Shown: positions 2,478 to 37,282, counted from the first letter of the stretch. The stretch: 64,000 nt of DNA from a virus (IMGVR_UViG_3300033076_001139:32001-96000), one strand, 5' to 3'. Notes: a model not told the origin generated them from the sequence alone. Numbers and translations: made by a program.

Positions 2478-2507
2478 TCCTAGATAGCGGTGAATTCCGC
2501 TATCTAC

Positions 2508-2741
2508 TTATGCCGATTTAGCCCCGTTTTCTTTGAGCATCTCGTGGATGTCCTCTGCGAGTATCTCTACCGTCGTAACGGCATGGCCGTTCTCGCATAC
2601 ACGACGACGCGCCACGTAGTCCTGCGTGTACCAACCCACTGCCTCTTCTGCTTCGCGCATGAGGCTCCCGCTCCCGTTGGGCGCGTCAGGGGTTCGAGAG
2701 TTCACGACCTTGGTGTCCTTACCGCACTGCTGGCAGATCAT
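2508..2741 (-). CDS. NrdR-N-terminal-like zinc ribbon protein
   Basis: MxCxxCG-DTKVVNSR...RRRVC-xGH-xTTVE pattern, no ATP cone. Confidence 0.75.
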   Translation of the reverse strand: MICQQCGKDTKVVNSRTPDAPNGSGSLMREAEEAVGWYTQDYVARRRVCENGHAVTTVEILAEDIHEMLKENGAKSA

Positions 2742-2755
2742 CGTTCCTCTTCTAG

Positions 2756-2831
2756 TGGTCGGGGTACGAGGAATTGAACCTCTTTGGGCGAGATATAAGC
2801 TCGCTCCGGACGACCAGTCCGGCCTACCCCG
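2756..2831 (-). tRNA. tRNA-Ile(UAU)
   Basis: CGGGGTA/TACCCCG-A-CCA acceptor; GCGAG-CT TAT AT-CTCGC anticodon arm; GGTTCAATTCC T arm. Confidence 0.88.
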
Positions 2832-3330
2832 CTAGTACTACTAACTCTTCTATAACGTTGCCTGTAATCCTGCGCTCTATTTCCTCTCGCGAATTGCTAT
2901 CTGCAAGTTTACGTAGGATATCGGCGCGGCATGGACGAGAACACGAGGTAAAGTTTCCGCCTTTGGAGAGATGCGTCGCATTCTTTCGTTTTTGGAATTG
3001 TCTACCGCAACCGGGGCAGCAGAGCACTACCTCTTTTCTCGTTACTTTCCGTTCCTTCAAGGACTTAGCTCTGTTTTCCTCGCCTGAAACAATCTGAAGG
3101 TTTTCCAGGCGGTCATCCGTTCGGTCGCCGTTGATGTGGTCCACCTCTTCGTGCGATTCAAGTACTCTTCCGAGGCTGACGCTCATTAAGAAGCGCGCAA
3201 ACGATATTGAGGAGTGCCCCGATGTGTGGTTCCGCAGGGCGATGATGTACCTTCCACCTGCGGTATCGAGGTAGGGCCCGTAGGCTTTATAATCCACAAA
3301 AGGGCTTACGATTTGTCCTGTGTATCGCAT
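2824..3330 (-). CDS. HNH homing endonuclease with C-terminal Zn-finger
   Basis: EEVDHINGDRTDDRLENLQIVSGEEN; CPGC...CSRPC; ATG 6 nt after a TATATT -10. Confidence 0.9.
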   Translation of the reverse strand: MRYTGQIVSPFVDYKAYGPYLDTAGGRYIIALRNHTSGHSSISFARFLMSVSLGRVLESHEEVDHINGDRTDDRLENLQIVSGEENRAKSLKERKVTRKEVVLCCPGCGRQFQKRKNATHLSKGGNFTSCSRPCRADILRKLADSNSREEIERRITGNVIEELVVLAG

Positions 3331-3336
3331 GGACGT

Positions 3337-3365
3337 AATATACAACGCAGCGCTCTAACCGTCAA
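3337..3365 (-). promoter_or_regulatory. sigma70-type promoter, leaderless HNH transcript
   Basis: TTGACG-N17-TATATT-N6-ATG. Confidence 0.75.
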
Positions 3366-3390
3366 GCTCTGACCCCTGAGCTATGGGCCC
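3366..3390 (-). pseudogene. tRNA 5' remnant
   Basis: GGGCCCA-TAGCTCAG-GGGTC-AGAGC (acceptor 5' strand plus D arm) with no anticodon or T arm. Confidence 0.55.
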
Positions 3391-3469
3391 ATTCGTGCTT
3401 CGTAACATGAAGGGGGTAAAAGTGCTAAAGAAAGGGGTAACAGTCTGAGACCATTACCCCCTTCCGTGG

Positions 3470-4147
3470 TTACTCCCCGACTTCCTTGGAGAACTCGGCT
3501 GCTCCGAAGACGACGGCGACACCGTCGTTGCCGAGGTTGTTGAGCAGGAACTCGACCGCGTCGTACGTGGTCATGCCCGAGAGCATCTGCTCCTGGATTT
3601 CCTGCACGCGGCCCTTCAGGACTTCGAGGAAGGTGTCGTCCTCTCCGTTCATGATCTCGCCATACTTCTCACGAAGGCGCGCGAGCGTGTCGGTGTAGCG
3701 CATGTCTACCGGGGTCATCTTGCGGTTAACCGCATCACGGGCGTTGAGGAACTCGCGCATCCCCTCCAACTCGCGGTTGGCGAAGTCTCCCAGCTCCGCG
3801 AGGGATCCCGGATCGGGGAACGTGAAGTTGCCCCACTCGTCGATCTCGATCTCCGTCCACTTGCCGTCGAGACAAACGAACTTGGCGCGCTCCTCGACGA
3901 ACTTCGAGGCAACCGCGGGGACCTCGTATCGACCGAAGCAGTCCGCGTTCTTGATCGCGTTTCCGAGGAAGGCGACGACCGTGTTGCTGTTCAGGTACTC
4001 GCTGTCCACGAGCAGGTTGCCCTCGACGCTGACCGCATCGCAGCCCTCTTCGGCGGTCTCTACGCCGACCACCTCCATGGAGCTGAAGAGTGGAATGAGG
4101 TCCTTGATGCGGCCCTCGATGCTGATCTTGACTTTGATCATCTGCAT
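3470..4147 (-). CDS. hypothetical protein
   Basis: 225 aa, AGGA RBS, terminator downstream at about 3424-3460. Confidence 0.8.
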   Translation of the reverse strand: MQMIKVKISIEGRIKDLIPLFSSMEVVGVETAEEGCDAVSVEGNLLVDSEYLNSNTVVAFLGNAIKNADCFGRYEVPAVASKFVEERAKFVCLDGKWTEIEIDEWGNFTFPDPGSLAELGDFANRELEGMREFLNARDAVNRKMTPVDMRYTDTLARLREKYGEIMNGEDDTFLEVLKGRVQEIQEQMLSGMTTYDAVEFLLNNLGNDGVAVVFGAAEFSKEVGE

Positions 4148-4152
4148 GTGTC

Positions 4153-4359
4153 CTACCAGATGGCGCGTTCGCGCCAGTGACGTTCGTTGAACCTCAACTG
4201 CGCGTTCTCTACGCGCAGTTCTTCCATCAATGCGAGCATCTCCCTTCTCGCGTCTTCATCCGTCACGTGCTTCCGCACCAAAGACTTCATCTTGTCAATC
4301 GCAGGGCAAGTATGCCCTACCGGCTTCCAACAATCAGGCTCTTTCCACGGCATACTCAC
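4153..4359 (-). CDS. small protein with HTCPAID motif and coiled coil
   Basis: follows class-A promoter 4381-4408 and AAGGAG. Confidence 0.75.
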   Translation of the reverse strand: MSMPWKEPDCWKPVGHTCPAIDKMKSLVRKHVTDEDARREMLALMEELRVENAQLRFNERHWRERAIW

Positions 4360-4571
4360 TCCTTAAGTGCTTGCCAACTACTTATGACGCCTACTTGACG
4401 GGCATTTGATTGCGGAAAGACCGGAAATACGTGCTTCCAACGGAAGCATCTTTTTCCGGCTCGTGCACCAAATCGTGACGCGCAGACTATCTACTAGTTT
4501 CTACGTCCCGTAGCAAAACAGGCACTAAAAAAGCCGACACGAGTGCCGGCTTTCGGGAAATTACTTCGCTG

Positions 4572-5036
4572 TCAGCACGAGTCCGGGCCAAAGAAGAAGT
4601 GTCGGAACTCTTCCGTGTGCCCGTAGACGTCCAAGTAGTCGCCTACCTGCGAGAGAACCTCGCTTGTCCCTTCCGAAACGACGAGATGCGCGAGGATCTC
4701 GTCCGTAGACATGGGACGGTGGGCATATCCGAGGCTTCCGTCATCAAGAAGCGTCATCGCCACACGCCAGCCTGGTCGAGTGAGCGACGAAACCACACCA
4801 AGAAGCGTCTGAAAGTCGAGAACGACTCGCCCTGCCTCGTCGTACCAGCCGGAAGCCAGCCCGCGAGACATGCGGCGCAGTACGCCCTCGATTGCCTCGC
4901 GCTCTTTTCCTTCTTTGTAGTTGTCCGTTAGAGCAACGCCCTCGTCATCTTCGGCAGAAAGCAGGTCAATCAGCTCGCGAAGCCCTTCTTTTGTGTTCGG
5001 CTCCGACAAAAGTTCCCAACCCTTCTCGAGGTACAC
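4572..5036 (-). CDS. hypothetical protein
   Basis: GAGGT RBS, GTG start. Confidence 0.7.
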   Translation of the reverse strand: MYLEKGWELLSEPNTKEGLRELIDLLSAEDDEGVALTDNYKEGKEREAIEGVLRRMSRGLASGWYDEAGRVVLDFQTLLGVVSSLTRPGWRVAMTLLDDGSLGYAHRPMSTDEILAHLVVSEGTSEVLSQVGDYLDVYGHTEEFRHFFFGPDSC

Positions 5037-5043
5037 GACTACC

Positions 5044-5238
5044 TCAGTAGGAATGAGTGCGAAAAAACTCCTCCGAGCGGAGAAGAACCTCCTTCAGCCG
5101 GCTGTACGCCTGCGTGCGAAGAAGATCGCGCGTCCTGTCCGTGAACTTCTCTTTGTTTTCCTCGAAGTCTACGAGTTCGTTCATTGCCTCGACGGTTTCT
5201 TTGTGCAGTTCTCGGAGGATTTCAAGCTGAGTTTTCAC
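5044..5238 (-). CDS. small coiled-coil protein
   Basis: ORF in operon chain. Confidence 0.65.
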   Translation of the reverse strand: MKTQLEILRELHKETVEAMNELVDFEENKEKFTDRTRDLLRTQAYSRLKEVLLRSEEFFRTHSY

Positions 5239-5752
5239 GTGCTAGCCCCATGACGAAGATGTTTGCCTCGATCCACTCATCGGAATCCCTCCCACACATG
5301 GTGATGCGCAGAGGTCCGACCCTTCCCGCGCAGGTAAGTTCCATCGTGCGGGCGGAAGATACGAGTTCAGAAAGAACCCGACTGATCACCGTCCAATAAT
5401 ACGTAGAAAGATAGATGTCTACGTCGTCAGTTGCGTTCGCCATCATGCGTTCGAGGTGATCTCGTACGCTTTCCGGGTAGTCGGCGGGAGCCTCCAGGCT
5501 CAAGTACGTCTCAATCGTCTTCGGGTTCCGCATCCCTTGCTCAGAAACCCAGGCAACTCCGCCCCAGTCTACGAACTCTGGATTGCTGAACGCAACGGTG
5601 AGGGCCATCACGCTGTCTGTTGCTTCGAACACGAACAGGTCCGAGCCGGGATCAGACTCAATCTTCGCAAAGTAGGACCACTCGGGGCGGCCCTTCGTGC
5701 CCATGGCACGTAAAACGGTGTGAATGGCTGTCGCTACGCTGGTAGGTATCAT
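5222..5752 (-). CDS. hypothetical protein
   Basis: GGAGG RBS after class-A promoter 5767-5774. Confidence 0.75.
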   Translation of the reverse strand: MIPTSVATAIHTVLRAMGTKGRPEWSYFAKIESDPGSDLFVFEATDSVMALTVAFSNPEFVDWGGVAWVSEQGMRNPKTIETYLSLEAPADYPESVRDHLERMMANATDDVDIYLSTYYWTVISRVLSELVSSARTMELTCAGRVGPLRITMCGRDSDEWIEANIFVMGLARENSA

Positions 5753-5825
5753 TGAGCCTCCACGCGCTTATGCCCACTTCCTTGAAGTTTTGAGCTAAGA
5801 GAAAGGCCCCGAAGGGCCGGGCTCT

Positions 5826-6059
5826 CTACGCTTCGCCCACTGGGCGAAGTGCGCGCAGCCTTGACGGCGAGAGCTTGATGAGTGCTCCCGCCTCCTCATT
5901 CATGATCATCTGATCGACCGAGAGTTGGTGCTCTCGGAGCAACTGGTTGTACCTCGCCACGAGGTCAGGCTGCCGCCCATCCTCCCTCATACGCTCCTCG
6001 ACGTCGTAAATGTCCAGGATGATGCTATCGACGTGACGAACGTAGTTCCCACTAGCCAT
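5826..6059 (-). CDS. hypothetical protein
   Basis: AAGGAGG RBS after class-A promoter 6087-6114. Confidence 0.75.
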   Translation of the reverse strand: MASGNYVRHVDSIILDIYDVEERMREDGRQPDLVARYNQLLREHQLSVDQMIMNEEAGALIKLSPSRLRALRPVGEA

Positions 6060-6263
6060 CGTGAAGCAGCCTCCTTGCTGCATTTACTTATGGCAGGAGT
6101 TGCGGGAAAGTTTAGGCTAAAGAAAAACCCCACTGGTTGCCCAGTGGGGTGTGGCTTTTAGTAACCCCTCAGAGCCACGAACTGCGCCGAGCTATACGAC
6201 TCGGGGAACCCTTGATCACCCGTGCACAGGTGTGTTCCGTCTACGACTCCCACGTCTGGGAGG

Positions 6264-6344
6264 TGGTCGGGGATGCCAGATTCGAACTGGCGAAAAACCT
6301 CTTGCGCCCAAGGCAAGCGCTCTACCCGGCTGAGCTAATCCCCG
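6264..6344 (-). tRNA. tRNA-Pro(UGG)
   Basis: cloverleaf, CT TGG GC loop, CCA. Confidence 0.92.
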
Positions 6345-6353
6345 AAAAATGAG

Positions 6354-6439
6354 TGGTCCCCCCAGCTGGATTTGAACCAGCGATGGCTTGCGCTTCGGGT
6401 TAAAAGCCCGCTCCCTTCGGCCTCTCGGGACATGGGGGG
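6354..6439 (-). tRNA. tRNA-Lys(UUU), long variable arm
   Basis: CT TTT AA loop; about 14-nt variable region; CCA. Confidence 0.85.
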
Positions 6440-6451
6440 ATGAATTGTGAG

Positions 6452-6526
6452 TGGTTGGGGCGGAAGGATTCGAACCTTCGAATGCGGGAGTCAAAGTCCC
6501 GTGTCTTACCGCTTGACGACGCCCCA
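6452..6526 (-). tRNA. tRNA-Gln(UUG)
   Basis: CT TTG AC loop, CCA. Confidence 0.95.
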
Positions 6527-6541
6527 ACAAGACTTCTCAAG

Positions 6542-6627
6542 TGGTGCTTCGGGCGGGACTCGAACCCGCAAGCTCGTTAGAGCGGAGAATTTTAAGTTCC
6601 CAGTGGATACCATTTCACCACCGAAGC
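6542..6627 (-). tRNA. tRNA-Leu(UAA)
   Basis: CT TAA AA loop, long variable arm, CCA. Confidence 0.95.
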
Positions 6628-6631
6628 AATG

Positions 6632-6715
6632 TGGTGCGCGGAGAGGGAATTGAACCCTCACGCCTTTCGGCACGGGCTCCTAAGGCCCGCGTGTCTACGA
6701 TTCCACCATCCGCGC
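6632..6715 (-). tRNA. tRNA-Leu(UAG)
   Basis: CT TAG GA loop, long variable arm, CCA. Confidence 0.95.
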
Positions 6716-6719
6716 AAAA

Positions 6720-6795
6720 TGGAGCTAGTGGCCGGACTTGAACCCGCAACCTGCTGCTTACAAAGCAGCTGCTCTACCAGTTGAGCTACACTAGC
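6720..6795 (-). tRNA. tRNA-Thr(UGU)
   Basis: TT TGT AA loop, CCA. Confidence 0.95.
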
Positions 6796-6798
6796 ATG

Positions 6799-6875
6799 TG
6801 GCCTCTCAGGCAGGAGTCGAACCTGCGACCAGCAGCTTAGAAGGCTGCTGCTCTATCCTGCTGAGCTACTGAGAG
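6799..6875 (-). tRNA. tRNA-Arg(UCU)
   Basis: CT TCT AA loop, CCA. Confidence 0.95.
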
Positions 6876-6876
6876 A

Positions 6877-6951
6877 TGGTAGTCGAGGTGGGGCTCGAAC
6901 CCACAACCCCCGCCTTGTAAGGGCGATGCTCTGCCATTGAGCTACTCGACT
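6877..6951 (-). tRNA. tRNA-Val(UAC)
   Basis: CT TAC AA loop, CCA. Confidence 0.95.
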
Positions 6952-6987
6952 GCGTTAAGGATTTATACCGTTTTTGACGAACTTTTA

Positions 6988-7064
6988 TGGCTCCCGCTCC
7001 CTGACTCGAACAGGGGACCCACGGATTAACAGTCCGTTGCTCTAACCAACTGAGCTAAGCGGGA
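6988..7064 (-). tRNA. tRNA-Asn(GUU)
   Basis: CT GTT AA loop, CCA. Confidence 0.95.
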
Positions 7065-7065
7065 A

Positions 7066-7141
7066 TGGAGCAGAAGACGAGACTCGAACTCGCGACCAAC
7101 AGCTTGGAAGGCTGTGACTCTACCGACTGAGTTACTTCTGC
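7066..7141 (-). tRNA. tRNA-Gly(UCC)
   Basis: CT TCC AA loop, U73-CCA. Confidence 0.95.
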
Positions 7142-7146
7142 AAAAG

Positions 7147-7222
7147 TGGTGGAGGCGAGGGGGTTCGAACCCCTGACCCCCGGCTTGCAAAGCCGGTGCT
7201 CTCCCAACTGAGCTACGCCCCC
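7147..7222 (-). tRNA. tRNA-Ala(UGC)
   Basis: TT TGC AA loop, G3:U70, CCA. Confidence 0.95.
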
Positions 7223-7332
7223 AGCTCTCTCTGCATAACCAGGGCTAAAAGAAAGCGTCAAATCCTTTTCAGGAAAAGACGCGCTCTTTTTACGCCCGAC
7301 GCCCCTTTTCACGACGGGGCAGGGCCAAGTCT

Positions 7333-7782
7333 TCAGCGGATGTTGAAGAACTCCAACAGTCCGAGCGTGTGAGACTCTCCGATGGTCTCGTACGCAAATC
7401 CATCCGGGCTATCGCCCCACGACATGTCGCCGCAGAAGAAGAGCAGCTGCGTGTCGTCGTCTGGGTCAATGCGGCAGTAGAGATCTCGCGCGTTGCTCCC
7501 GTTCCACACCGCGTAGAGATCGGTGACGAGGTTCTCGGCGCGGCCCTGGATTGCTCCCGGCCTCTCGTCCTCGAAGTCTTCAAGCTCGTAGTCAATATCC
7601 ATCAGAGAGCGGTCAACAATCTTCTGCGCCTCAGGCGAGATGCCTCGCCCTTCGCGATGATCAATCGCAGCCTGGTTCAAGAGGTTGAGTGCATTCACGA
7701 CGCACTCAACCGCAGCTGCACGCTTCTCTTCCGGCAAATCACGCGGGCCCTTCAAAAGGTACCCGATGAGGTCAGCTCCCAT
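7333..7782 (-). CDS. hypothetical phage protein (MGADL...GDMSWGDSP)
   Basis: 149 aa, AGGAG RBS. Confidence 0.8.
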   Translation of the reverse strand: MGADLIGYLLKGPRDLPEEKRAAAVECVVNALNLLNQAAIDHREGRGISPEAQKIVDRSLMDIDYELEDFEDERPGAIQGRAENLVTDLYAVWNGSNARDLYCRIDPDDDTQLLFFCGDMSWGDSPDGFAYETIGESHTLGLLEFFNIR

Positions 7783-8061
7783 TTACTCAGTCTCCTTTAC
7801 GCTCTTTGCTACTGCCATGAAGTAGTCGAGCGGTACGATTTGTCGCGAGCCATCGTCCTGCATGAAATACACAAGTGGCTTGCTGTCTCCTGAGATGATG
7901 CTAACGACGTCACCAGCATGGCCCCGCAGACGCCAGTGACTTCCAATCGCAGGGCCCTCAACCTCTTCAGCGGGGGACTCCTTCAGAGAAAACAACACCT
8001 TCGCAATCGCAGCAGTGGCCAGGCCGACAATGAAAGAAACTACACAGCAGATGATCATCAT
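7783..8061 (-). CDS. membrane-anchored hypothetical protein
   Basis: N-terminal hydrophobic helix; coupled chain. Confidence 0.65.
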   Translation of the reverse strand: MMIICCVVSFIVGLATAAIAKVLFSLKESPAEEVEGPAIGSHWRLRGHAGDVVSIISGDSKPLVYFMQDDGSRQIVPLDYFMAVAKSVKETE

Positions 8062-8357
8062 GGCTCTTCCTCGGTGATGCACAGTTTAAGGGCTTCAGCA
8101 AGTGTGTACTGTTCGGTGTGGCTAGTTCGGTCGTACGGCCTCCGGTCGCCTGTAGGTACGTCATGCGTGACGAAGATGTGGTTGTCGGTGCCGTACTGGT
8201 CGATGTAAACCTCCGCGCACCAAAGGCTGGTAGCATCCGGTTCAATCAGCCCGCTCGCCTTCGCCCGCCGAAGTGTTTCATGAAGCAGTCTCCGTTCAAC
8301 AATCCGTTGGAACCACAGGAACGGATCTACGTCTGCCTTACCTACTTCTACATTCAT
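8058..8357 (-). CDS. hypothetical protein
   Basis: AGGAGGAG RBS. Confidence 0.65.
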   Translation of the reverse strand: MNVEVGKADVDPFLWFQRIVERRLLHETLRRAKASGLIEPDATSLWCAEVYIDQYGTDNHIFVTHDVPTGDRRPYDRTSHTEQYTLAEALKLCITEEEP

Positions 8358-8596
8358 GGCTCCTCCTTGCGGCGGTGCTCGCCGCCGTTATTTCCCTTCC
8401 ATCCCCACCTGCGTGCCTCCTCGCAGCGGCACTCGCCTGTGGCGTACATGATCCCCGCGCAGTGGGGGGCGTGCCCGGCGAGCGTTAGCGCGTACATCGC
8501 ATCGACTTTCGCTTCCTGTTCCTTTCGCGCCCTGCGTCGATGGATGATGTCGCGCACGACCTCTCTGTGCGTCCTCCGCCTCCAACGGCTCATCAC
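8354..8596 (-). CDS. small basic hypothetical protein
   Basis: GAGGAGGAG RBS, follows class-A site 8661. Confidence 0.65.
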   Translation of the reverse strand: MMSRWRRRTHREVVRDIIHRRRARKEQEAKVDAMYALTLAGHAPHCAGIMYATGECRCEEARRWGWKGNNGGEHRRKEEP

Positions 8597-8731
8597 TCCT
8601 CCTCGTGGCGAGCATCACCGCGTTTATGTACGCGCACGGGATTAATTCCCGGCGCAAAGGCTTATGACACATAAAAGAAAAGTCGCCTGGTCCTCCCAGC
8701 TCAGACGACTTTTCTTTGGCCCCGGGCACCA

Positions 8732-9178
8732 TCACTCTTCAGTGACGATGCCTTCCCCCCGGAGCCACTCCGCGTCCACCGCGGAGACGCCGGCGAGCCC
8801 GAGGGCCGCCTTCACCTTCCGCAGCTTCGCATAGTTTCCACCGCCCACTAGGAAGCGACGGTGGAAGGAGATCCCGTGGTGCGCGAAGATCCGCGCCCAC
8901 ACGGTACGCCGCCCGATGAACTTCCGCGCGGCGTAAAGTCCCAACCCGGGGAGGATGGGCATCCATCCCGGGAGCCATCCCCGTGCTGCGAGGTAGAGCC
9001 CTGTGCAGCACGTGACATCACTCCACTCCTCACGGATCCCCGTGAGGTTCCCTGCCCGTACTTCGGCGAGCAGCTCTTGCCACTCGCCTTTGACGTAGTC
9101 CCAAGTCATGTCCGATGCCATGACGTGGGACCTCATCCACCCGTAGGTGAGTGTCCCACACCATGTAGAAACGAGCAT
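8732..9178 (-). CDS. MazG-like nucleotide pyrophosphohydrolase domain protein
   Basis: VKGEWQELLAE...IREEWSDV resembles the EExxE...EExxD MazG motif; own class-A promoter and AAGGAGG. Confidence 0.5.
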   Translation of the reverse strand: MLVSTWCGTLTYGWMRSHVMASDMTWDYVKGEWQELLAEVRAGNLTGIREEWSDVTCCTGLYLAARGWLPGWMPILPGLGLYAARKFIGRRTVWARIFAHHGISFHRRFLVGGGNYAKLRKVKAALGLAGVSAVDAEWLRGEGIVTEE

Positions 9179-9298
9179 TATTCCTCCTTGCTCATATACT
9201 TATGACAGGATCACCCTGGAGTTCGGGGCTAAAAGAAAATCCCCGAGCAGTGCTCAAGGGGATCTACCGCCTGCTCCCTTGTGAGGAGCGGGAGGATT

Positions 9299-9871
9299 TC
9301 ACAGCCGGCGGACCGGTCCCGGCGTCACCGCCGGCGGGGGCGAGAGCCGCGTGTCTGCGGCCCAAGCCGGGCTTACGCCCAGCCCGGAGCAGGCCTTGTG
9401 GGCCTGCTCCTTTTCATGATCCCCGTACTCGCCGGGGACCAGCCCCGGCCCGTGGGTGAGCGCAGTTACACGCCCACCCTCCTTCCGAATTTCCCAGAGG
9501 AGGATCTCGGCCCCCCTCCTGAAGATCTGGAGGTGAGCGTCACCGGCAACGGTGACGCTCCAGCGGACGGTTCCCATCGTAGAGCGATGGGTCGTGGCGG
9601 GGGCGAGCCCGCGGAACTTGTACCCGTCATTATACGGGTACCGCTCAAGGTAGGCGATGCGTGCTGCATCGCCTTCTGCGTCTGCGAGGTCGCGGAGCTG
9701 TTGCTCCGCGTCGGCGGCTTGAAGACGCACCTCCCAGGCGGCGACAGCCGCCTCCACTCCGAGATTTAGAATCTCCGAGTCTGTCGGACCCAGCGGGTCC
9801 GTAGCCCAGCCGTGTCCGAAGGCACGGGCGAGGGGGCGGAGGACGGAGAGCTGGGCGGAATTGATGTTCAT
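9299..9871 (-). CDS. hypothetical protein
   Basis: own class-A promoter 9927, GGAG RBS, terminator downstream. Confidence 0.75.
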   Translation of the reverse strand: MNINSAQLSVLRPLARAFGHGWATDPLGPTDSEILNLGVEAAVAAWEVRLQAADAEQQLRDLADAEGDAARIAYLERYPYNDGYKFRGLAPATTHRSTMGTVRWSVTVAGDAHLQIFRRGAEILLWEIRKEGGRVTALTHGPGLVPGEYGDHEKEQAHKACSGLGVSPAWAADTRLSPPPAVTPGPVRRL

Positions 9872-11126: not shown

Positions 11127-11257
11127 GTGGGCCTCCATGAGCGAGGGTCTCGTATTGGTTGTGCCAACCATCCCCGAACCTACGGGGATGGCGAGGAAAG
11201 GCTACGATTTCCTGCTCATATTATTATGACCGGTAATCCCGAATATTTTAGGCGCAA

Positions 11258-30170: not shown

Positions 30171-30456
30171 GGACGGAGCGATCCGCAGCCTTATCGTCTG
30201 GCGTTGCGGCACGGACGGCTTTTATGCCGAGAGCATCGCGGCCCTCTCTGACCCCCAGCGTCTGCGTGTTCTTCCCGCTTGGGTCAAGGAGCAACTTGAG
30301 GGGCTCGGAGCAGACCGCGATCTTGACTGGCGTGGCAATCCTAAGACGGGTGCCAAGCCGGTGACTGCGTCGGTTCAGATGCCGCTCCCCTCTGCCGCGC
30401 CTGTTGCCCCCGTAAAGGGCGGCGATGACGACCTTCCGGACTTCAAGTCCGCCTGA
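30061..30456 (+). CDS. hypothetical protein
   Basis: AAGGAG RBS; DDDLPDF near C-terminus. Confidence 0.75.
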   Translation: MPSVASPKQTTQFHPTLRRKVVASADVLLQQVQVVDKDGAIRSLIVWRCGTDGFYAESIAALSDPQRLRVLPAWVKEQLEGLGADRDLDWRGNPKTGAKPVTASVQMPLPSAAPVAPVKGGDDDLPDFKSA

Positions 30457-30465
30457 GAGGTAGAC

Positions 30466-30624
30466 ATGGCGACCGTAAAGGATGATCGACTTCAGATCCG
30501 TATTGATGCGGATCTGAAGGCCCGTTTCAAGAACTACGCCGACAAGCGCAAGGTTGAGATGAGCCAGATCCTAGAGGACTACATTCGCCGACTTCTCAAC
30601 AAGAAGGACGACGATGCTACCTGA
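30466..30624 (+). CDS. ribbon-helix-helix DNA-binding protein, 52 aa (not in ORF track)
   Basis: MATVKDDRLQIRIDADLKARFKNYADKRKVEMSQILEDYIRRLL; GAGGT RBS. Confidence 0.85.
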   Translation: MATVKDDRLQIRIDADLKARFKNYADKRKVEMSQILEDYIRRLLNKKDDDAT

Positions 30625-31144
30625 GATCGAAGCCAAGGTTCCCGTTACAGAGGTTGTGCCGTTGGTAGGTACAACTCTGTCAAGTTTACTCGACCAACTC
30701 AAGGGCATCTTCGCGGGCACATATCGGGTTTCTCGGTTTGTGTACTCTCGCGGAGAAGCACTCAGAGTAGAGCGGCTTGTGCCTGTGTCAGTTGCTAATT
30801 CCTCGCGGGATCAGTTTGCCACGCCATTCCAATTTGCGCGGCAGCACTCCCGTATTGAGCTACAGGAACGGGACGACTTCGATTCCTCATTGAGCATGGT
30901 TTTCCGGGCGATCACACGTTGCCGTGACGAGAAGTCCCCTGCGCGGTTTCTGGTTTGTCGCCAGGAGTCGCGCGCGAATCAGTGGGTATTCGACGAGGCC
31001 AAGTTTTCGTTGTCTACGATTTTCGGTCTCACTGTTTACGAAGACCCTGACACTCCCGAGGGCTGCCTCGTTGTGTGTGGGTCTAGTGCTGGCGACCTAA
31101 TCTCTGACACGGAGTTCAGCGTCGTATGCCGCCTGAAGGAATAA
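30614..31144 (+). CDS. hypothetical protein
   Basis: operon chain. Confidence 0.7.
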   Translation: MLPEIEAKVPVTEVVPLVGTTLSSLLDQLKGIFAGTYRVSRFVYSRGEALRVERLVPVSVANSSRDQFATPFQFARQHSRIELQERDDFDSSLSMVFRAITRCRDEKSPARFLVCRQESRANQWVFDEAKFSLSTIFGLTVYEDPDTPEGCLVVCGSSAGDLISDTEFSVVCRLKE

Positions 31145-31246
31145 ACGAACCGCCGGAGCAAGATCAGCCGGAGGACTACTCCTCTTGGGATACGCCGCCG
31201 TCTGATCCTGAACTTGAAGACCCCCTACAACAGTTGTACGCGCTGA

Positions 31247-31813
31247 TTGAGCGCGATCTCAGGATGGGACATGTTCGCGAGTCAGATTGAGAAATCCTCT
31301 GTTGTCACTTTAGTCTCTGAGGAGACAAGTGAGGACGGCGGGTCACACAAGGTATTGCTGCGCGTCACGGATATGCGGCGCTGGGGCAAGATGGTGGTGT
31401 CTCTCCTAAAGGCGCCAGAGGAGGCAGCGGAGGAGCCGTCATTTGGGGTATCTGTCCGAAAGGAATACTACCTAGACGAAGGCGGCTCTCCGACGTTCTG
31501 CTGGGTTCTGCTGTTCTGGGGAGAGATTGACGATGCCGTAGAGGCGTGCGGGCCTCTGCTTGGCAAGAGCTACGCGCCTCCTCCGCCTCCCGCCGGGGCA
31601 GTTGTTGCTGCACCGGCAGCCAAGAAGCAGGCCATCCCAATGCAGAAGCGACGTGTCACATCGGAGGACGGAACCGAGCGCGTGCTTACTGTCGTCCCTC
31701 TCGGTGGCCATGGGGCCGAACGTAACGTCAAGGGAAAGTCTCCTCGGCGTGCCTTTGTGGACAATACCAACTTCGCAAATGACGGAAGCAACCCGCAGGA
31801 GTCCTCGATATGA
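31247..31813 (+). CDS. hypothetical protein
   Basis: operon chain, start uncertain. Confidence 0.7.
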   Translation: MSAISGWDMFASQIEKSSVVTLVSEETSEDGGSHKVLLRVTDMRRWGKMVVSLLKAPEEAAEEPSFGVSVRKEYYLDEGGSPTFCWVLLFWGEIDDAVEACGPLLGKSYAPPPPPAGAVVAAPAAKKQAIPMQKRRVTSEDGTERVLTVVPLGGHGAERNVKGKSPRRAFVDNTNFANDGSNPQESSI

Positions 31814-32460
31814 GCCAGGACAATAAGCAGTTTGAGGAATTCCGGGCTCGACTCTTTGAGGAGATTAAGGAAGAGAGCGAAAAGACCGCATCGGAAATGC
31901 AGAAAAAGGCGCGGTACAAGATCCAGCTTTTCTTCCAATCTGAGAGGTCGGACAAGAAGCCCATCGCCTTTACCCTCTCGGTGTGGGAGTCCGGAAAGCG
32001 ACTGCACGGTGGCGGAGACGAGTGTCTCTTTATCTGCCGTCGTCAGCGTGGCGCAGGCGGCAAGCCGTTTGACGTCATGGGCAAGGAAGTGAAGTCGCCC
32101 ATGGGCTGCGGCGGGTTCATCACAGGCGATCTGGTATCCGAGGAGGGAACCATGATTTGTCCTCACTGCCTGCTTCCCCACAAGAGCACGGAGGTTGGAG
32201 ACAGCGTGTTCTTCCGGCTCCCAGTAGATAAAGCAGCAGCCGTACTTGAGCAGTGGTGGTACAAGTTGGGCGGGGACGCGGACGTGTACATGAAGTACTC
32301 GCCGTTTGATGTACGCGTGAAGATGATGCAGGATGCCTACGGGGTGCGTAAAGCCCGAGAGCTGAAGGGCATGACGATCTACCCCCTTGAGAACATCCTC
32401 AAGGACACGGCAACTGGTGCATCTGTCCAATCTCGGTTCCGCGCGCTAATATTGGCGTGA
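31810..32460 (+). CDS. zinc-binding hypothetical protein
   Basis: AGGAG RBS; GCG...CPHC. Confidence 0.8.
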   Translation: MSQDNKQFEEFRARLFEEIKEESEKTASEMQKKARYKIQLFFQSERSDKKPIAFTLSVWESGKRLHGGGDECLFICRRQRGAGGKPFDVMGKEVKSPMGCGGFITGDLVSEEGTMICPHCLLPHKSTEVGDSVFFRLPVDKAAAVLEQWWYKLGGDADVYMKYSPFDVRVKMMQDAYGVRKARELKGMTIYPLENILKDTATGASVQSRFRALILA

Positions 32461-32472
32461 CCTGAGGCCGTC

Positions 32473-32706
32473 ATGCAGAAGATCGCGAAGCCGGGCGAGG
32501 CACCTAACTATCGCCCGGCAGAGAACTCAAACGCCAGTTGCCAGACTTGCTTCTACTTCGGCAAGTACAACAACGGATCTGGGTACTGCAACCAGTACAA
32601 GTTCTCCGCGCGTGAGGCCTTTACGTGTGATGGCTTTACTCCTTCGGCGCAAAAATCGGCGTCTGTTGCAGATAGCGGGCCGTTCCTAAAGGGGCGGTAC
32701 TCATGA
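32473..32706 (+). CDS. HiPIP-like four-Cys small protein with KIA/KSAS motifs
   Basis: NYR...CQTCFYF...GYC--Y.....FTCDGF. Confidence 0.6.
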   Translation: MQKIAKPGEAPNYRPAENSNASCQTCFYFGKYNNGSGYCNQYKFSAREAFTCDGFTPSAQKSASVADSGPFLKGRYS

Positions 32707-33128
32707 GCCCCGAGGTTCTTTCCGCGTTTGCACGCGAGATAGTCAAGGTTGCGGCGTTGTCCGGTTCCAAAGAGGACATCAGCTCGGGCCGAAAGGTCGA
32801 TGCCTTCTTCCTTTCTGCGGAACCTAAAAAGAAGTGGGACGAGTTCAAAGAGAACGTTGCACGACGCTCCTTCGTCCAGAAGGTGCTGGCGGACCCCCGC
32901 ACAGACCAGAAGCTCCTCGTACACGCGGACTCCATGAACCGCCTTGCCACTGGGCAGCGTCTTGGCATGGTTCCGGGAGCTAACGGCGAGACCTACGAGA
33001 TCAAGCGGCTACGGGGGTCCAGCGAGCTGGGCTGTACCTGCGCGGACTGGCGCTACAAGAAGTCAGTTGCCCCTGCGGGACAGCGCGAGTGCAAGCACAT
33101 CCGCATGTTCCAGGGTGGTAAAAATTGA
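32703..33128 (+). CDS. SWIM zinc-finger protein with AFAREIVKVA N-terminal motif
   Basis: CTCADW...CKHI. Confidence 0.8.
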   Translation: MSPEVLSAFAREIVKVAALSGSKEDISSGRKVDAFFLSAEPKKKWDEFKENVARRSFVQKVLADPRTDQKLLVHADSMNRLATGQRLGMVPGANGETYEIKRLRGSSELGCTCADWRYKKSVAPAGQRECKHIRMFQGGKN

Positions 33129-33285
33129 CTCCCTGCTTGGACGGTTCACCGCTTCTCCCAGGGAGGCTCCTACTTCCCTCTCGGTTCGTGGGCCAGCCAT
33201 CCTCCCTCAACACGAGGTGAGTGGTTTTCTGAGCATAGACTTTATAACTGTTTTTCGTTTCTTTTAGTCCCAAGAGGAAGGACAC

Positions 33286-33543
33286 ATGAGCAAGACTGTT
33301 GGCGAGGTTCTACAGGAGGTACGCGAGCTGAAGGAGCGGGCGACGGTGCATCAGGCACTCGCGAGCTACCTGCGGACGTACTACATGGGTCGGGACTCTG
33401 GGAAGTCGCAGAAGCAGCTCAGCTGCGAAGCGGCCCCAGTTGCCGAGCGGGTGATCGAAGAGATCGCCTGTGAACTTGAGGAGACTGCCAAGGAGGCAGT
33501 CTCTATCGCTAACAGCACACTCTCGGAGAAGTATGATGGGTAG
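33286..33543 (+). CDS. hypothetical helical protein
   Basis: AAGGA RBS. Confidence 0.7.
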   Translation: MSKTVGEVLQEVRELKERATVHQALASYLRTYYMGRDSGKSQKQLSCEAAPVAERVIEEIACELEETAKEAVSIANSTLSEKYDG

Positions 33544-33967
33544 CCCCACGCGCAGCGCACGCAACCTTGCCGCCTCTGCCACTGAAGTCGCAAATCAGGC
33601 TGTTGAGGTCACCAAGGACAACCAGTTCCTGCTGACGCAAGTACTTGATGAAATGTCCAAGCTGACCGAGGCCATCGACATCATCTGGGCGCAGCAGGAG
33701 GCTATGCGTGGGGCAATGGAGGCGATGGATACCACGCTTGCCGCCCTCAAGCAGACGGTGCTTCGCTCGGGTAACGCTGCCAGCGCGCAGTTCGATGAGG
33801 CGGAACGTTCTTTTGCAGAGAAGAAGGCTAAGCTTCGCGCCGCGCGAGAAGTTGCGCTTCAGCAGGCAGAACTTGCAAATACCCCCGCACCGGTAGAGAA
33901 TAAGCCCTCACCGGTTTCCCCTGGTAGCTCCAGCTACCCATCAGAAGCTTTTGTTTTCGGAGGCTAG
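33533..33967 (+). CDS. coiled-coil protein
   Basis: GGAG RBS, heptad pattern. Confidence 0.75.
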   Translation: MMGSPTRSARNLAASATEVANQAVEVTKDNQFLLTQVLDEMSKLTEAIDIIWAQQEAMRGAMEAMDTTLAALKQTVLRSGNAASAQFDEAERSFAEKKAKLRAAREVALQQAELANTPAPVENKPSPVSPGSSSYPSEAFVFGG

Positions 33968-33968
33968 C

Positions 33969-34517
33969 ATGCCCAACCAAGAAGCCCTCGTAGCCCACGC
34001 CGACCTGGCCCTAGACTTCCTAGGACATATGCGAATGATGCACCTCTGGTTCCACGGGGCGCATCACCTAGTTAGCGGGGTGTCTTTTTCGGGAGATCAC
34101 GTAAACCTGTTCGGAACGATCTACACAGAGATCGAGGAGCAGATCGACGGGGCCATCGAGAAGTTCGTAGGGCTGATTGGCGAGGACATGGGCGACCCGC
34201 TCGCAATCACCTCCAAGGCCCTTGAGGCCATGCAGGGGTACCAGTCTCCGGCGCACCGTAGCGCAACGGCGATTGCCCTGACTGGTCTTCAGATTGAGAA
34301 GGACTTCCTCAACCTGTGCGAAGAGATGTACGCTGTCCTCAAGCAGAACGACGCCATGACGCTGGGGCTGGACGACTTCATTATGACGACGGCCAGCGCA
34401 CACGAGACGTTCGTCTACCTGCTACAGCAGCGTGTTCGCGAGGCGATGCAGCAGCAGGCACAGACGCAGGGGATGGCCCCGCAGCCTGCTGCAATTCCGG
34501 CCATCCCCGGCCACTAG
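33969..34517 (+). CDS. Dps/ferritin-like protein
   Basis: HGAHHLVSG-SF-xDH-xLF-xIY---EEQIDGAIEK matches the Dps ferroxidase helices. Confidence 0.8.
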   Translation: MPNQEALVAHADLALDFLGHMRMMHLWFHGAHHLVSGVSFSGDHVNLFGTIYTEIEEQIDGAIEKFVGLIGEDMGDPLAITSKALEAMQGYQSPAHRSATAIALTGLQIEKDFLNLCEEMYAVLKQNDAMTLGLDDFIMTTASAHETFVYLLQQRVREAMQQQAQTQGMAPQPAAIPAIPGH

Positions 34518-34674
34518 TGGGTTATACTGACTACGGCGGGGGACTCCCTCCATGAAAGTCCTGCCGTAGTCTTTTCCCCCGCCCGCTTGGTCGTTCGCGA
34601 TGCATCATGAGAGACGCAGTAGGCTAGGCCCGCTCTGAGCCAAAATCAGCACCTGTTGGAAGGAGCTGTGCAGA

Positions 34675-34714
34675 GCTAAATAAATGCCGCCGAGGAGCAC
34701 CTCGGCGGCATTTC
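34675..34714 (-). terminator. intrinsic terminator after the ligase
   Basis: aaatgccgccgagg-agca-cctcggcggcattt. Confidence 0.85.
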
Positions 34715-34715
34715 T

Positions 34716-36065
34716 TCATAGGCGCGGGTTCACACACTCCGACACGTGCTTGTCTGTCCGCACGCAGAGGAAGCGTGGGAACCGCAGAGCATTGGTGTCT
34801 CCGCCCTCGGAGATGTACGTTCGGGAGTCGTACTCTACCACGAACACCGCAGGGTAGATGTCCTCGTTACTGAGGGCGCGCAGGTCTGCCTCAGTAAAGC
34901 CGTTACCAACTTCGCTGATGGGCACGAGCGTTCCGTTGTTGTCCAGTTGGTAGAGCTGAACGCTACCGACCAGCTTCTGGTACTTGCCCGTCCCGTAGCT
35001 GCCCTCTCCCTGCCCTGGATGCCAGACGGCGATGAAGTCGTCGCTGAACGTCGGCTTCAGCTTGCCACAAGCCGTACCTGGACGATCCACCTTGCCGCGC
35101 AGGTTGAAGGCCTTGTCGCCGTAAACCCCGTTCGGGTCTACAACGACAAACCCCTCCCACCCGTTCTCGTACGCAGTAGCCGCAACGCAGTTCCAAACAC
35201 GGCCTTTTGTTGCGTTGTACGTGGGAGACTCCTTGGGATCCTCGCACTCAAGGAAGTCGCCCGACGCAAGAACCTCAACCGGCAGGAGAGCGTTGCTGTC
35301 TAGGTTCACCAGCTCAAAGATCAGGTCGTACCGGTCTCTCACTGGACGCGTGCGGCACATGGGCTCTCCGCCAAAGAACGCAATGTCCCAGACATAGAAC
35401 TGGAGAAAGCCCTGCTCTTGCTGAAGGGCCAAGGACTTCTCAGAGAGGGACTTCACGACGCGCGAGACGTACTTGAAGTCATCCTTCTCGGAAGGCGGAA
35501 CCATCTCGCCAAGAAGGATAGTGCGCGGCGGGAGATCCATGTTGGCGATCTCCGCTGCCACTCCAGGGTACCGAACTTCCCAAGGGACGCCCGGTTCCTT
35601 GTCGTGACAACGGAGCATCGTGCGCGAGTAGGCCTGTACCTGCCCCTCGTCGTTCACGACCCAAACCATCATGTCTCCGTCGCGCTTGCGCGCTAGGAAG
35701 GCATCGCCCTTCTCAAGCAGCTTCTCCAGCTTTGCCGACAGGTCGTTGTCCGGTTTGTAGAATCGCAGGGACTCGGGGAGGATGTCCCACGTGAACTCCT
35801 CAGCCCGCTGCGCGGACGGAGGCAGGTAGCCTTCCCGCGTTTTCAGTTCGATCTGCCGTTCGACCATGTCCTGCGCCACCAGCTCGGGAGAGCGGTAGTT
35901 GGACTTGCCCACGTTGACGGCAATTGCCGTGTCCACGACGCGCTGGAACTTACCGCCCAGTTCTCCAAACTCGGTGATTACCTGATCACCGTCTGCGCCA
36001 ATCCGCCAGACGCGCACCTTGCCTGTGCGCGAAATGTTATGCAGTTCCGTCATCGGAGGGTTCAT
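34716..36065 (-). CDS. ATP-dependent DNA ligase with WGR-like N-terminal domain
   Basis: KRDG (motif I), LLGEM, YVWDI, EGFVV, KLKP, LRFPRFL. Confidence 0.92.
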   Translation of the reverse strand: MNPPMTELHNISRTGKVRVWRIGADGDQVITEFGELGGKFQRVVDTAIAVNVGKSNYRSPELVAQDMVERQIELKTREGYLPPSAQRAEEFTWDILPESLRFYKPDNDLSAKLEKLLEKGDAFLARKRDGDMMVWVVNDEGQVQAYSRTMLRCHDKEPGVPWEVRYPGVAAEIANMDLPPRTILLGEMVPPSEKDDFKYVSRVVKSLSEKSLALQQEQGFLQFYVWDIAFFGGEPMCRTRPVRDRYDLIFELVNLDSNALLPVEVLASGDFLECEDPKESPTYNATKGRVWNCVAATAYENGWEGFVVVDPNGVYGDKAFNLRGKVDRPGTACGKLKPTFSDDFIAVWHPGQGEGSYGTGKYQKLVGSVQLYQLDNNGTLVPISEVGNGFTEADLRALSNEDIYPAVFVVEYDSRTYISEGGDTNALRFPRFLCVRTDKHVSECVNPRL

Positions 36066-36276
36066 GCTGATTATCCGTGGTGTTGATGGTGCGCACAAAA
36101 ACAGTCTTCAGAAGGACATTGAGCAGGAGATCGAGGCCTTCGACGCCGCGTTTACGAAGCTTGGAAACGCGCCGTTGGTTCGATCAGAAAAGGCCTTGAT
36201 CCGGACTTTCCTGGTTGCCCGGCTGACAGGGCGCGTATCTTCTCCCCAAGAGGATTCGAAAACATCCGGTCAATGA
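36064..36276 (+). CDS. small hypothetical protein
   Basis: amphipathic helices; back-to-back with the ligase. Confidence 0.5.
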   Translation: MLIIRGVDGAHKNSLQKDIEQEIEAFDAAFTKLGNAPLVRSEKALIRTFLVARLTGRVSSPQEDSKTSGQ

Positions 36277-36646
36277 GGCTGGGCGTGTCCGGAGGCATGT
36301 CCCACTTCTCTGGGCTGAGGACGACGATGGGGAGCGGAAGATTAGGGAAGTTTTCTGGATTGTCCTCATAACCCAGCATTTCTTCCTTGAGTCCACGCAG
36401 CGCCTTTCCTTCCTCGTTTACGTGCCACGCTAGGGCAGTGACGATGTAGCCCTCTCGCTTGCTCTTGAAGCGGAAACAAAGGGCACGGATTTCGTCACCG
36501 TCTACTTCAACGTCTGCAAAACAGAAGTAGCCACGGTGGCCCTGCGTCGAGGGTCCGTAGCCGCAACGCCCGCACTGGTAGACACCAGGGGCGATCTGTG
36601 CCGTGTCGTAACGGCAGATAGGGCAGAAGAGAACGAGCTTATCCAT
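36152..36646 (-). CDS. zinc-ribbon protein
   Basis: CPIC...CGRC; GGAGG RBS; class-A promoter 36662-36689. Confidence 0.75.
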   Translation of the reverse strand: MDKLVLFCPICRYDTAQIAPGVYQCGRCGYGPSTQGHRGYFCFADVEVDGDEIRALCFRFKSKREGYIVTALAWHVNEEGKALRGLKEEMLGYEDNPENFPNLPLPIVVLSPEKWDMPPDTPSLIDRMFSNPLGEKIRALSAGQPGKSGSRPFLIEPTARFQAS

Positions 36647-36718
36647 CTGAGCCTCCGCACTCTTATGGCTAATAAAGAACAAGTCTTTGCGCGCAAGGCG
36701 CAAGACAGCGCCCGAGCC

Positions 36719-37228
36719 TTACAGCCCGAGCACCGCCTTGCGCCTATCCGTCCACTGCATGATCCTCCGCAGGACAAGCGCATACTCGCGCTTGTCCTCC
36801 TTGTTCAGGAGGGCCTGGAGAATTCTCTCCTCGCCCTCCGTGAGGATTGCGGGCTGCTCCTTGGGGAGCGGAAATGCCTCCTCGGTCCGAAGGCGGGAGG
36901 CGGGGCCTACGGGGGCCCCAGCCTTCCCACCCATCTGGGCGATCGTTAGTGGCCAGTCAACGGCGTCAAGCACGCCGTTGACAAACTCGTCCTCCTCCTC
37001 TGTGGCGGGAGTTGTGAGGATGCCGATGATTAGCGCCGCGTCGCGGCGTAGTTTCTCGGAAGCCTCCTCCTTGCGGAGGTGCTGCCGGCAGGCCTCCAGG
37101 CCCGGAGTGACGGCCGCCGCTGCGGCGCGAGGGGCGACAACCCCCGACATGAAGGCCGTGGGGATGGCAGCGCACAGGCTGCCAAAGATAGCAAGGCTGA
37201 TCGGGTCCATGAGATACTCCTTTCTCAT
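36719..37228 (-). CDS. membrane-anchored hypothetical protein
   Basis: class-A promoter 37233-37260; AAGGAG before ATG 37210 (probable true start). Confidence 0.75.
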   Translation of the reverse strand: MRKEYLMDPISLAIFGSLCAAIPTAFMSGVVAPRAAAAAVTPGLEACRQHLRKEEASEKLRRDAALIIGILTTPATEEEDEFVNGVLDAVDWPLTIAQMGGKAGAPVGPASRLRTEEAFPLPKEQPAILTEGEERILQALLNKEDKREYALVLRRIMQWTDRRKAVLGL

Positions 37229-37282
37229 GTATCTTATGACCGATTTTGCCCTTCCTTTTAGACTCTGCTATGGTGGGTGCGC

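Follow-up and report, generated by a model that had tools for sequence, protein, structure and literature searches.

The left part of the window analysed here, bases 32001-96000 (64,000 nucleotides, nt) of a 151,105-base-pair (bp) IMG/VR phage record (IMGVR_UViG_3300033076_001139, estimated 81% complete), is filled on the minus strand with small open reading frames (ORFs) and twelve tRNA genes from its left edge to ~37,260, and a plus-strand block of large virion-type genes starts at 37,277. Ahead of the minus-strand genes lie 22 copies of a short motif with the core G-(T/C/G)-C-A-T-A-A-G, whose bases are denoted motif positions 0 to 7. These copies belong to a real, clade-wide and phage-specific motif class that most likely represents sigma-type promoters, with the register of sigma-28 and an altered −10 element. 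The uncultured phage of this window is denoted G000 in comparisons with its relatives, which include contigs with handles such as G001 and G027 and Salmonella phage Arash.

Motif statistics and putative promoter copies in the window

Because the matrix used for scanning (motif positions −24 to +24, with position counts from 27 seed sites) was trained on the sites themselves, the count of the plain pattern, set against shuffled sequence, serves as the unbiased statistic. The pattern G[CGT]CATAA[AGT] matches the window 33 times (30 minus, 3 plus) against 8.9 ± 2.7 expected, with none of 100 shuffles reaching 33. A matrix scan of the whole record revealed 32 sites, every one of them on the minus strand, with 22 inside the window and 10 outside; reversed-sequence controls at the same threshold yielded 0–1 matches. 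The preliminary description of this DNA had reported about 22 copies, all on the minus strand, and the matrix returns exactly that number, at every coordinate then named.

Upstream of the core, 10 of the 22 window sites have [TC]AAA separated from it by precisely 16 nt (0.1 expected), and in 4 further sites the spacer is 14, 15 or 17 nt. The spacer histogram has a sharp peak at 16 nt before G-N-C-ATAA, equivalent to 19 nt before ATAA. The upstream element extends to a conserved block, c-C-T-A-A-A-a, at motif positions −21 to −16, with A at −18/−17 in 18–21 of the 27 seed sites. Two further conserved features were not in the preliminary description: an A/T patch at motif positions −7 to −4 and a downstream stretch, TA..TG.AG, at +8 to +16.

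The ten copies with [TC]AAA at 16 nt are the same ten for which this spacing had been claimed. Eight of them carry TAAA: 6080–6115 (core GCCATAAG, 6087–6094, 33.6 bits), where a terminator at 6150–6127 with the tail TTTTCTTTAG abuts the −35; 10273–10308 (GTCATAAG, 10280–10287, 37.5 bits), heading the ORF at 10020–10226; 11216–11251 (GTCATAAT, 11223–11230, 39.4 bits), heading the ORF at 10761–11171; 19889–19924 (GCCATAAG, 19896–19903, 42.8 bits), heading the ORF at 19522–19836; 20386–20421 (GTCATAAT, 20393–20400, 39.1 bits), heading the ORF at 20052–20375; 23293–23328 (GGCATAAG, 23300–23307, 33.7 bits), heading the ORF at 22798–23262; 25346–25381 (GCCATAAG, 25353–25360, 35.4 bits), heading a non-coding tRNA-like RNA; and 37226–37261 (GTCATAAG, 37233–37240, 29.1 bits), which lies at the divergent junction with the virion-gene block and has a counterpart at the syntenic junction of G001. 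The other two carry CAAA: 4374–4409 (GTCATAAG, 4381–4388, 21.9 bits) and 36655–36690 (GCCATAAG, 36662–36669, 27.2 bits), the latter with the leader GAGGCTCAG-ATG and heading an ORF of 164 amino acids and the DNA ligase gene at 34716–36098.

Other copies have a −35 at a different spacing or of a different sequence. The copy with the top matrix score, 45.5 bits, at 13121–13156 (GTCATAAG, 13128–13135), has TCAAAA at a spacer of 15 nt and heads the ORF at 12613–13077; 12442–12477 (GTCATAAG, 12449–12456, 35.7 bits) has CCAAAA, also at 15 nt, and heads the ORF at 12141–12407; and 2500–2535 (GGCATAAG, 2507–2514, 19.2 bits) has CAAA at 17 nt and heads the ORF at 2172–2477. TGAA at 16 nt is found in 9920–9955 (GTCATAAG, 9927–9934, 32.0 bits; ORF 9299–9871), CTAA at positions −20 to −17 in 16398–16433 (GCCATAAG, 16405–16412, 28.3 bits; DUF3228 gene in the frame 15760–16404), and a weak −35, CCGAA, in 9192–9227 (GTCATAAG, 9199–9206, 31.1 bits; ORF 8732–9178), with a terminator at 9259–9241 upstream. 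The copy at 5760–5795 (GGCATAAG, 5767–5774, 18.7 bits) comes right after a terminator at 5818–5805 and heads the ORF at 5222–5752 through a very short leader, GAGGCTCA-ATG. The copy at 25963–25998 (GGCATAAG, 25970–25977, 27.9 bits) has no clear −35, is followed by a 10-bp hairpin and heads the ORF at 25378–25926.

Four copies had been described as lacking a −35 and abutting a terminator tail, and each indeed has 7–9 T in positions −12 to −1, directly after a hairpin. They are 8654–8689 (GTCATAAG, 8661–8668, 21.6 bits), fused to a terminator T-tail and heading small genes; 15657–15692 (GTCATAAG, 15664–15671, 25.2 bits), fused to the terminator at 15709–15686; 19417–19452 (GTCATAAG, 19424–19431, 24.4 bits), with a T-rich terminator tail and a start codon 24 nt past the predicted transcription start; and 25038–25073 (GTCATAAA, 25045–25052, 24.1 bits), with TTTGTTTTTAG before the core and heading the ORF at 24577–25008. 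The tRNA array at 7222–6264 lies downstream of the copy at 8661 and is probably co-transcribed from it, so that tRNAs are presumably also driven by this class.

At most sites a start codon preceded by a Shine-Dalgarno sequence lies 8–75 nt past the predicted transcription start, and several apparently coding motif matches result from over-extended ORF calls. The motif had been said to precede nearly every minus-strand transcription unit, which is overstated: ~21 of roughly 30 minus-strand intergenic gaps carry a copy, and the gaps without one include those before several small genes and before two ORFs, at 14350–14460 and 14770–14890 on the minus strand. Both ORFs start with one shared sequence of ~30 nt, TTG-TAC-TTC-CTC-TAC-ATC-CTC (M-Y-F-L-Y-I-L-x-C-A-D...), and look GIY-YIG nuclease-like by eye only, no family search having been made. 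Both begin inside the T-tail of a strong terminator hairpin with no promoter copy, and would therefore be expressible only by read-through.

The genes driven in the window are mostly without annotation, the exceptions being DUF3228, DUF6878 and the ATP-dependent DNA ligase; searches of 20 promoter-driven and plus-strand early-region genes against Pfam and PHROGs were mostly blank. A copy outside the window heads a replication module that encodes a DEAD/ResIII helicase, a UDG-like protein, a DnaB-like helicase, a family A DNA polymerase, a RecA/DnaB-like protein and a PD-(D/E)XK nuclease.

Terminator-like hairpins are in excess in positions 1–20,000 of the window (34 vs 18.4 expected), and a number of the minus-strand ones finish immediately ahead of a copy, their tail, TTTCTTTTAGCC, often entering the −35. 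The terminator and promoter form one conserved cassette. The tails are near-fixed in sequence, TTT(T)CTTT(T)AGCC, and run straight into the −35 TAAA (5800–6150, 9240–9260, 11555–11580 and 19900–19930); the same junction with a TTTTAG core is observed at three sites in Arash.

Transcription is predicted to start at motif position 13 or 14, based on the sigma-28 register, and 22 of the 27 seed sites have a purine at one of these positions. Two leaders (GAGGCTCA-ATG) run from motif position 14, and the acceptor stem of the tRNA-like RNA runs from motif position 13, its 5′ arm GGAGACA pairing with 3′ TGTCTCC-T-CCA. Together with an Arash copy that lies 13 nt before a tRNA gene, the short leaders and the tRNA-like RNA would confine the start to motif positions 8–14. 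The tRNA-like RNA itself occupies 25133–25347 on the minus strand, behind the promoter at 25353, and has a T-arm, GGGG-TGCAATT-CCCC; no ORF of at least 35 codons with a Shine-Dalgarno sequence starts within 190 nt in this region.

About 10 copies are followed by a similar GCAGG...CCTGC hairpin, and since only these share it, the stem was left out of the promoter definition. A 5′ hairpin as a general feature of the class was considered and rejected: the 40 nt past the predicted start have a mean folding energy of −8.1 kcal/mol, vs −8.7 for random genomic 40-mers (mean z −0.56). The 5′ hairpin after the 11223 promoter (11190–11215, minus strand) is formed by a 20-nt sequence, GCAGGAAATCGTAGCCTTTC, that recurs on the opposite strand at ~26385–26415, where it heads a plus-strand operon starting at 26480 with no CATAAG core upstream; GCAGGAAATCGTAGCCTTTC may be a shared leader placed behind a different promoter.

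Register against sigma-28 and the phage sigma factor

In the cryo-electron microscopy structure of the Pseudomonas aeruginosa sigma-28 open complex, the fliC promoter reads (−36)TCTAAAG(−30) and (−15)GCCGATAA(−8), with A-11 flipped out (PMC12784957). Aligned on ATAA, the phage TAAA lies at −34 to −31 and its preceding C at −35, identical to fliC. The 15 nt from TAAA to the 8-mer that corresponds to GCCGATAA, and hence the 19 nt to ATAA that the preliminary description had equated with the sigma-28 consensus, place the two promoters in the same register. In this register the phage 8-mer is n-G-(T/C/G)-C-A-T-A-A at −15 to −8, followed by G at −7. Compared with the −10 of sigma-28 (FliA/WhiG/SigD) promoters, GCCGATAA, which has GC at −15/−14 and G at −12, only ATAA at −11 to −8 is shared, along with a base other than T at −7. 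The phage class has G for C at −14 and C for G at −12 (27 of 27 seed sites in both cases), a variable −13 and a conserved G at −7, so the difference in the −10 that had been pointed out is borne out base by base, and sigma-28 architecture with a shifted −10 is an exact description. The sequence CCGATAA is not enriched in this genome (2 and 6 copies vs ~7 expected per strand). The class further differs from sigma-28 promoters in its conserved start region, TAtaTG-R-AG, and in its regulon, which would comprise early and replication genes rather than flagellar genes. In P. aeruginosa sigma-28, R97 reads −15/−14 and R80 reads −12G, and the R80A mutant retains 15% activity (PMC12784957); because the bases read by these two residues are changed, a host FliA would fit the phage sites poorly.

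The record encodes one sigma factor that we could find, a 257-amino-acid protein at 47245–48018 on the plus strand, which is the proposed reader of the promoters. It has a Pfam Sigma70_r3 match above cut-off, its family profile aligns with E. coli FliA residues 16–236 with an hhalign probability of 94.9%, and its top matches among PDB structures are of FliA/WhiG type, the best solved relative being 6pfv_A. Although very divergent from sigma-28, it keeps S-x-V-S-Q in the region 4.2 helix, the residues that read TCT in the sigma-28 −35. In region 2.4, the sigma-28 Arg in contact with −12G is replaced by Gln, consistent with the changed −10. The phage combines its own sigma-70-family factor with a non-host consensus before many of its genes, namely the 32 sites before minus-strand genes. 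It also encodes an RNA polymerase in a single frame of 2074 codons with beta (PF00562, 9e-64) and beta′ (PF00623, 2e-23) domains, at genome positions 128051–134251, outside the window. Both the sigma and the polymerase genes lie within the plus-strand virion-gene block.

The motif in Arash and the wider clade

No close DNA relative was found by megablast of 20 kilobases (kb) against phage records, the 18-nt consensus string has no exact match in viral contigs, and a search of viral contigs with the ligase protein found no relatives. Searching with a profile of the sigma factor identified 27 more viral contigs. By sigma the nearest cultured relative is Salmonella phage Arash (OQ632216), whose sigma is 33% identical. 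Mass spectrometry of purified Arash virions ranked Gp206 (beta), Gp216 (beta′) and the sigma, Gp10, with the most abundant proteins; promoters are not mentioned in that study (PMC10585845).

When the intergenic 7-mers of Arash were counted without bias, TTATACC came first, with 37 copies on one strand vs 1 on the other, which corresponds to minus-strand GGTATAA. In Arash, the sites have the form tCCAaTAA, ~14 nt, GGTATAAG and then TAAaGTGTAAaCA, in ~36–39 copies on one strand. Between 25 and 74 kb, where we compared them with the deposited annotation, 15 of 18 copies are followed at a distance of 13–55 nt by the annotated start of a minus-strand gene or a tRNA. Arash thus shares a homologous sigma, a homologous polymerase and the same promoter design with G000, and differs in having T at −12, G at −13, another −35 sequence and separate beta and beta′ genes. 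The exact G000 pattern is not enriched in Arash (11 and 12 matches vs 23 and 24 in controls), and the Arash variant emerged only from the 7-mer count.

Among the contigs, G001 (198,259 bp, sigma 36% identical) has ten copies of GGCATAAG, all on one strand, and some of these are syntenic with the window copy at 37233, with the ligase promoter and with two late-region copies. An apparent avoidance of CATAA in G001 (3 and 14 copies vs 71 expected) was dismissed as not specific, because this genome avoids all A/T-rich words. G001 (loci L005–L014, 63% GC) contains zero AAAAA/TTTTT, AAATT, AATAT or ATTTA in 198 kb, where ~83 of each are expected; lacking TTTTT, it cannot have T-tract terminators like those of the window phage.

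All 14 relatives examined in full, Arash among them, have the design (T/C)AA(A), ~16 nt, G-N-(C/T)-ATAAG, strand-biased in most. Separate logos for 15 genomes of 52–67% GC share AAA at −18 to −16, G-N-Y-ATAAG and T-(G/A) at +12 to +14. Among 14 related records with a clear strand bias, 13 carry G-N-Y-ATAAG on the strand opposite the sigma gene, as in G000. Polymerase and sigma co-occur in 15 of 17 records and in 5 of 5 that are at least 90% complete, the polymerase mostly as a frame of ~2050–2130 codons; in G027 (loci L085–L091) that frame is shorter, 1529 codons.

We compared the promoter consensus with the DNA-reading residues of each sigma, using for the residue mapping only the region 4.2 helix and the −12-reading position (E. 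coli FliA R74, equivalent to P. aeruginosa R80 and sigma-70 W434). In sigma-28, S224 and Q228 of region 4.2 read −36 to −34 (PMC12784957). The helix is S-K-V-S-Q in G000, G002, G003, G005, G006 and G008, and those with a resolved logo (G000, G002, G005 and G008) have T-A at motif positions −20/−19. It is S-K-V-(S/A)-K or Y-R-V-S-R in G001, G009, G010, G011 and G013, where G001, G011 and G013 have g-C at these positions, G009 has C only and G010 yields no resolved logo. In Arash, the helix N-Q-Y-N-Y goes with the −35 tCCAaTAA. At the FliA R74 position, Gln or Asn is accompanied by C at −12, with T in 0–9% of sites in the four cleanest genomes; T at −12 is accepted where the residue is Tyr or His; and in Arash, which has Trp, T is found in 36 of 36 sites. 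The consensus thus changes together with the DNA-reading residues among the relatives, across few independent contrasts, which is suggestive of the pattern expected if this sigma reads this motif. The preliminary description had proposed a phage-specific regulon with shifted −10 specificity, and the phage's own FliA/WhiG-like sigma, the recurrence of the motif in sigma-carrying relatives and the co-variation of the −35 with the recognition helix agree with that proposal.

Candidate readers of the putative promoter class

We consider it most likely, with a probability of roughly 70%, that the motif is a phage-specific promoter class for early and replication genes that is read by the phage's own FliA/WhiG-like sigma, most likely together with the phage polymerase. 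Each promoter would consist of a −35 block, c-C-T-A-A-A-a, at −35 to −30, a −10 block, n-G-(T/C/G)-C-A-T-A-A-G, at −15 to −7, and the start region, with transcription beginning 6–7 nt past the final core G. The reader would be the group-3 sigma encoded at 47245–48018, and its partner most probably the fused beta-beta′ RNA polymerase, which is favored because the two co-occur and are co-packaged in Arash. By analogy with Arash, sigma and polymerase may travel in the virion, in which case the class would be an early one. Its targets would all lie on one strand and comprise small early genes, the ligase, the replication module, tRNAs and two non-coding RNAs, and the many copies directly behind an intrinsic terminator would act as terminator-promoter cassettes. 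A wider proposal, for which we regard the odds as even, is that the motif serves as the DNA component of a bacterial-type transcription system that is self-contained and independent of the host, in which a fused beta-beta′ polymerase and a sigma-28-like factor are delivered by the virion to ~30 cognate promoters per genome and in which sigma and promoter specificity have drifted together across the clade.

To our knowledge, the host core is the partner of all phage-encoded sigma-70-family factors characterised so far, and an alternative that we consider unlikely keeps the same promoters and phage sigma while the sigma redirects the host core, as SPO1 gp28 and phiEco32 gp36 do, and the fused polymerase uses other signals. 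The alignment of the sigma with FliA spans regions 2 to 4, so its core-binding surfaces could be generic, and the phage polymerase might serve the plus-strand genes, for which we found no motif. Phage sigmas working with the host core are also the pattern stated in reviews (PMC7824862, PMC13282480). Against this alternative count the co-occurrence of sigma and fused polymerase throughout the clade, the abundance of both in Arash virions, which fits a packaged holoenzyme (PMC10585845), and the single promoter design in a clade whose 52–67% GC implies different hosts.

Reading by a host holoenzyme, either host sigma-28 (FliA) or sigma-70 acting at extended −10 promoters, appears very improbable. 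The −35 and the spacing are those of sigma-28, and the Arash core is often T-G-G-TATAAG, which resembles an extended −10 (TGnTATAAT), whereas the Arg-read −12G, without whose Arg 15% of activity is left, and the GC at −15/−14 are here C and nG. Sigma-70 in turn needs T at −7, where the phage has G, and −12 is C in G000. Sigma-70-like promoters are not enriched (4 vs 6.0 and 2 vs 5.5 expected). Furthermore, the consensus shifts with the phage sigma sequence among relatives, while host FliA promoters share one consensus (PMC12784957). The least probable of the explanations, and one to which we give hardly any weight, is that the motif is not a promoter at all and instead marks an RNA-level processing or stability signal at the 5′ ends of cistrons, or a binding site for a phage repressor or activator. 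Conservation does reach into the presumed transcribed region (+8 to +16), and the GCAGG...CCTGC hairpins behind some copies would suit an RNA signal; the leaders as a set, however, are no more stable than random 40-mers, the copies follow terminators, at places where transcription has to begin afresh, and two short blocks held 16 nt apart, in precisely the register of sigma-28, are as expected of sites read by a sigma factor.

Several observations weigh against reading by the phage sigma and polymerase. Contact with the −35 is reported to be essential for sigma-28 (PMC12784957), and 5 of the 22 window copies are without any −35 match, 4 of them fused to terminator tails. The best NCBIfam matches of the sigma, FliA/WhiG, score 40 bits, far below the cut-offs of 190–326, and its regions 2 and 4 fall below the Pfam threshold. 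The counterparts of FliA D81 and R91 could not be aligned stably, as MAFFT and hhalign disagree around an indel of 2–7 residues. In G003 and G005, which have Gln or Asn at the R74 position, 25–32% of matrix matches have T at −12; the co-variation as a whole rests on perhaps 2–3 independent changes and is confounded with phylogeny, and it is only suggestive because of these few changes and of the noise in the two genomes. In G027, alone among the relatives, motif and sigma gene share a strand (10 motif copies forward, 0 reverse). The evidence also appears to fit the phage polymerase and the host core alike as the sigma partner, and promoter activity and start sites are predictions from sequence for any member of the clade.

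Phage sigmas that redirect the host core include SPO1 gp28 and gp33/34, phiEco32 and 7-11 gp36 (PMC8948821) and T4 gp55. These systems resemble the present one in having a phage-encoded sigma-70-family factor with its own non-host consensus before phage genes. They differ in that none of these phages is known to encode a polymerase and that the sigma functions in middle or late transcription, whereas this phage also encodes a fused beta-beta′ polymerase and its promoter heads replication genes and presumed early genes. The N4 virion RNA polymerase (vRNAP), with its hairpin promoters, and the virion polymerases of phiKZ and AR9 (PMC7598289) share with it many near-identical copies that head short early units on one strand and an enzyme probably injected with the DNA, judging by the Arash virion proteome; these lack a sigma homologue and their promoter is a single block or hairpin, unlike the two-block −35/−10 described here. 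According to reviews of 2021 and 2026, phages with multisubunit polymerases lack sigma homologues and sigma-bearing phages lack polymerases (PMC7824862, PMC13282480). A self-contained sigma and polymerase system, if true, would be an exception to this rule, and the clade would offer a natural series of orthogonal sigma-promoter pairs.

This consensus is not described in the literature that we found on Arash transcription, on phage polymerases and sigmas or on the core 8-mers. It would be the first promoter consensus for Arash-like phages, a clade of one cultured member and dozens of metagenomic contigs, and the co-variation at named residues ties it, suggestively, to the clade's own sigma. The clade may also represent a natural experiment in how a group-3 sigma changes specificity, from Arg to Gln, Asn, Tyr or Trp at the −12-reading position and from Gln to Lys or Arg in the −35 helix. 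With Salmonella Typhimurium as a host for Arash, the predictions are open to direct test: starts 6–7 nt past GGTATAAG, early transcription insensitive to rifampicin and dependence on Gp10. Annotation profits as well, because the sites point to the true gene starts in places where ORF calls are too long and flag two non-coding RNAs.

Plus-strand genes without a detected motif include the sigma and polymerase genes themselves. A second promoter class was sought for the plus-strand genes by k-mer enrichment, in this genome and across 15 genomes, and nothing was recovered beyond Shine-Dalgarno words and the motif described here, in reverse complement. Two plus-strand gene blocks lie within the minus-strand early region, at 20571–22700 and 26480–34517. 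In the second block, ten proteins have no Pfam family match and one marginal PHROGs match was the only hit, and several genes of the plus-strand blocks have homologues in G001.

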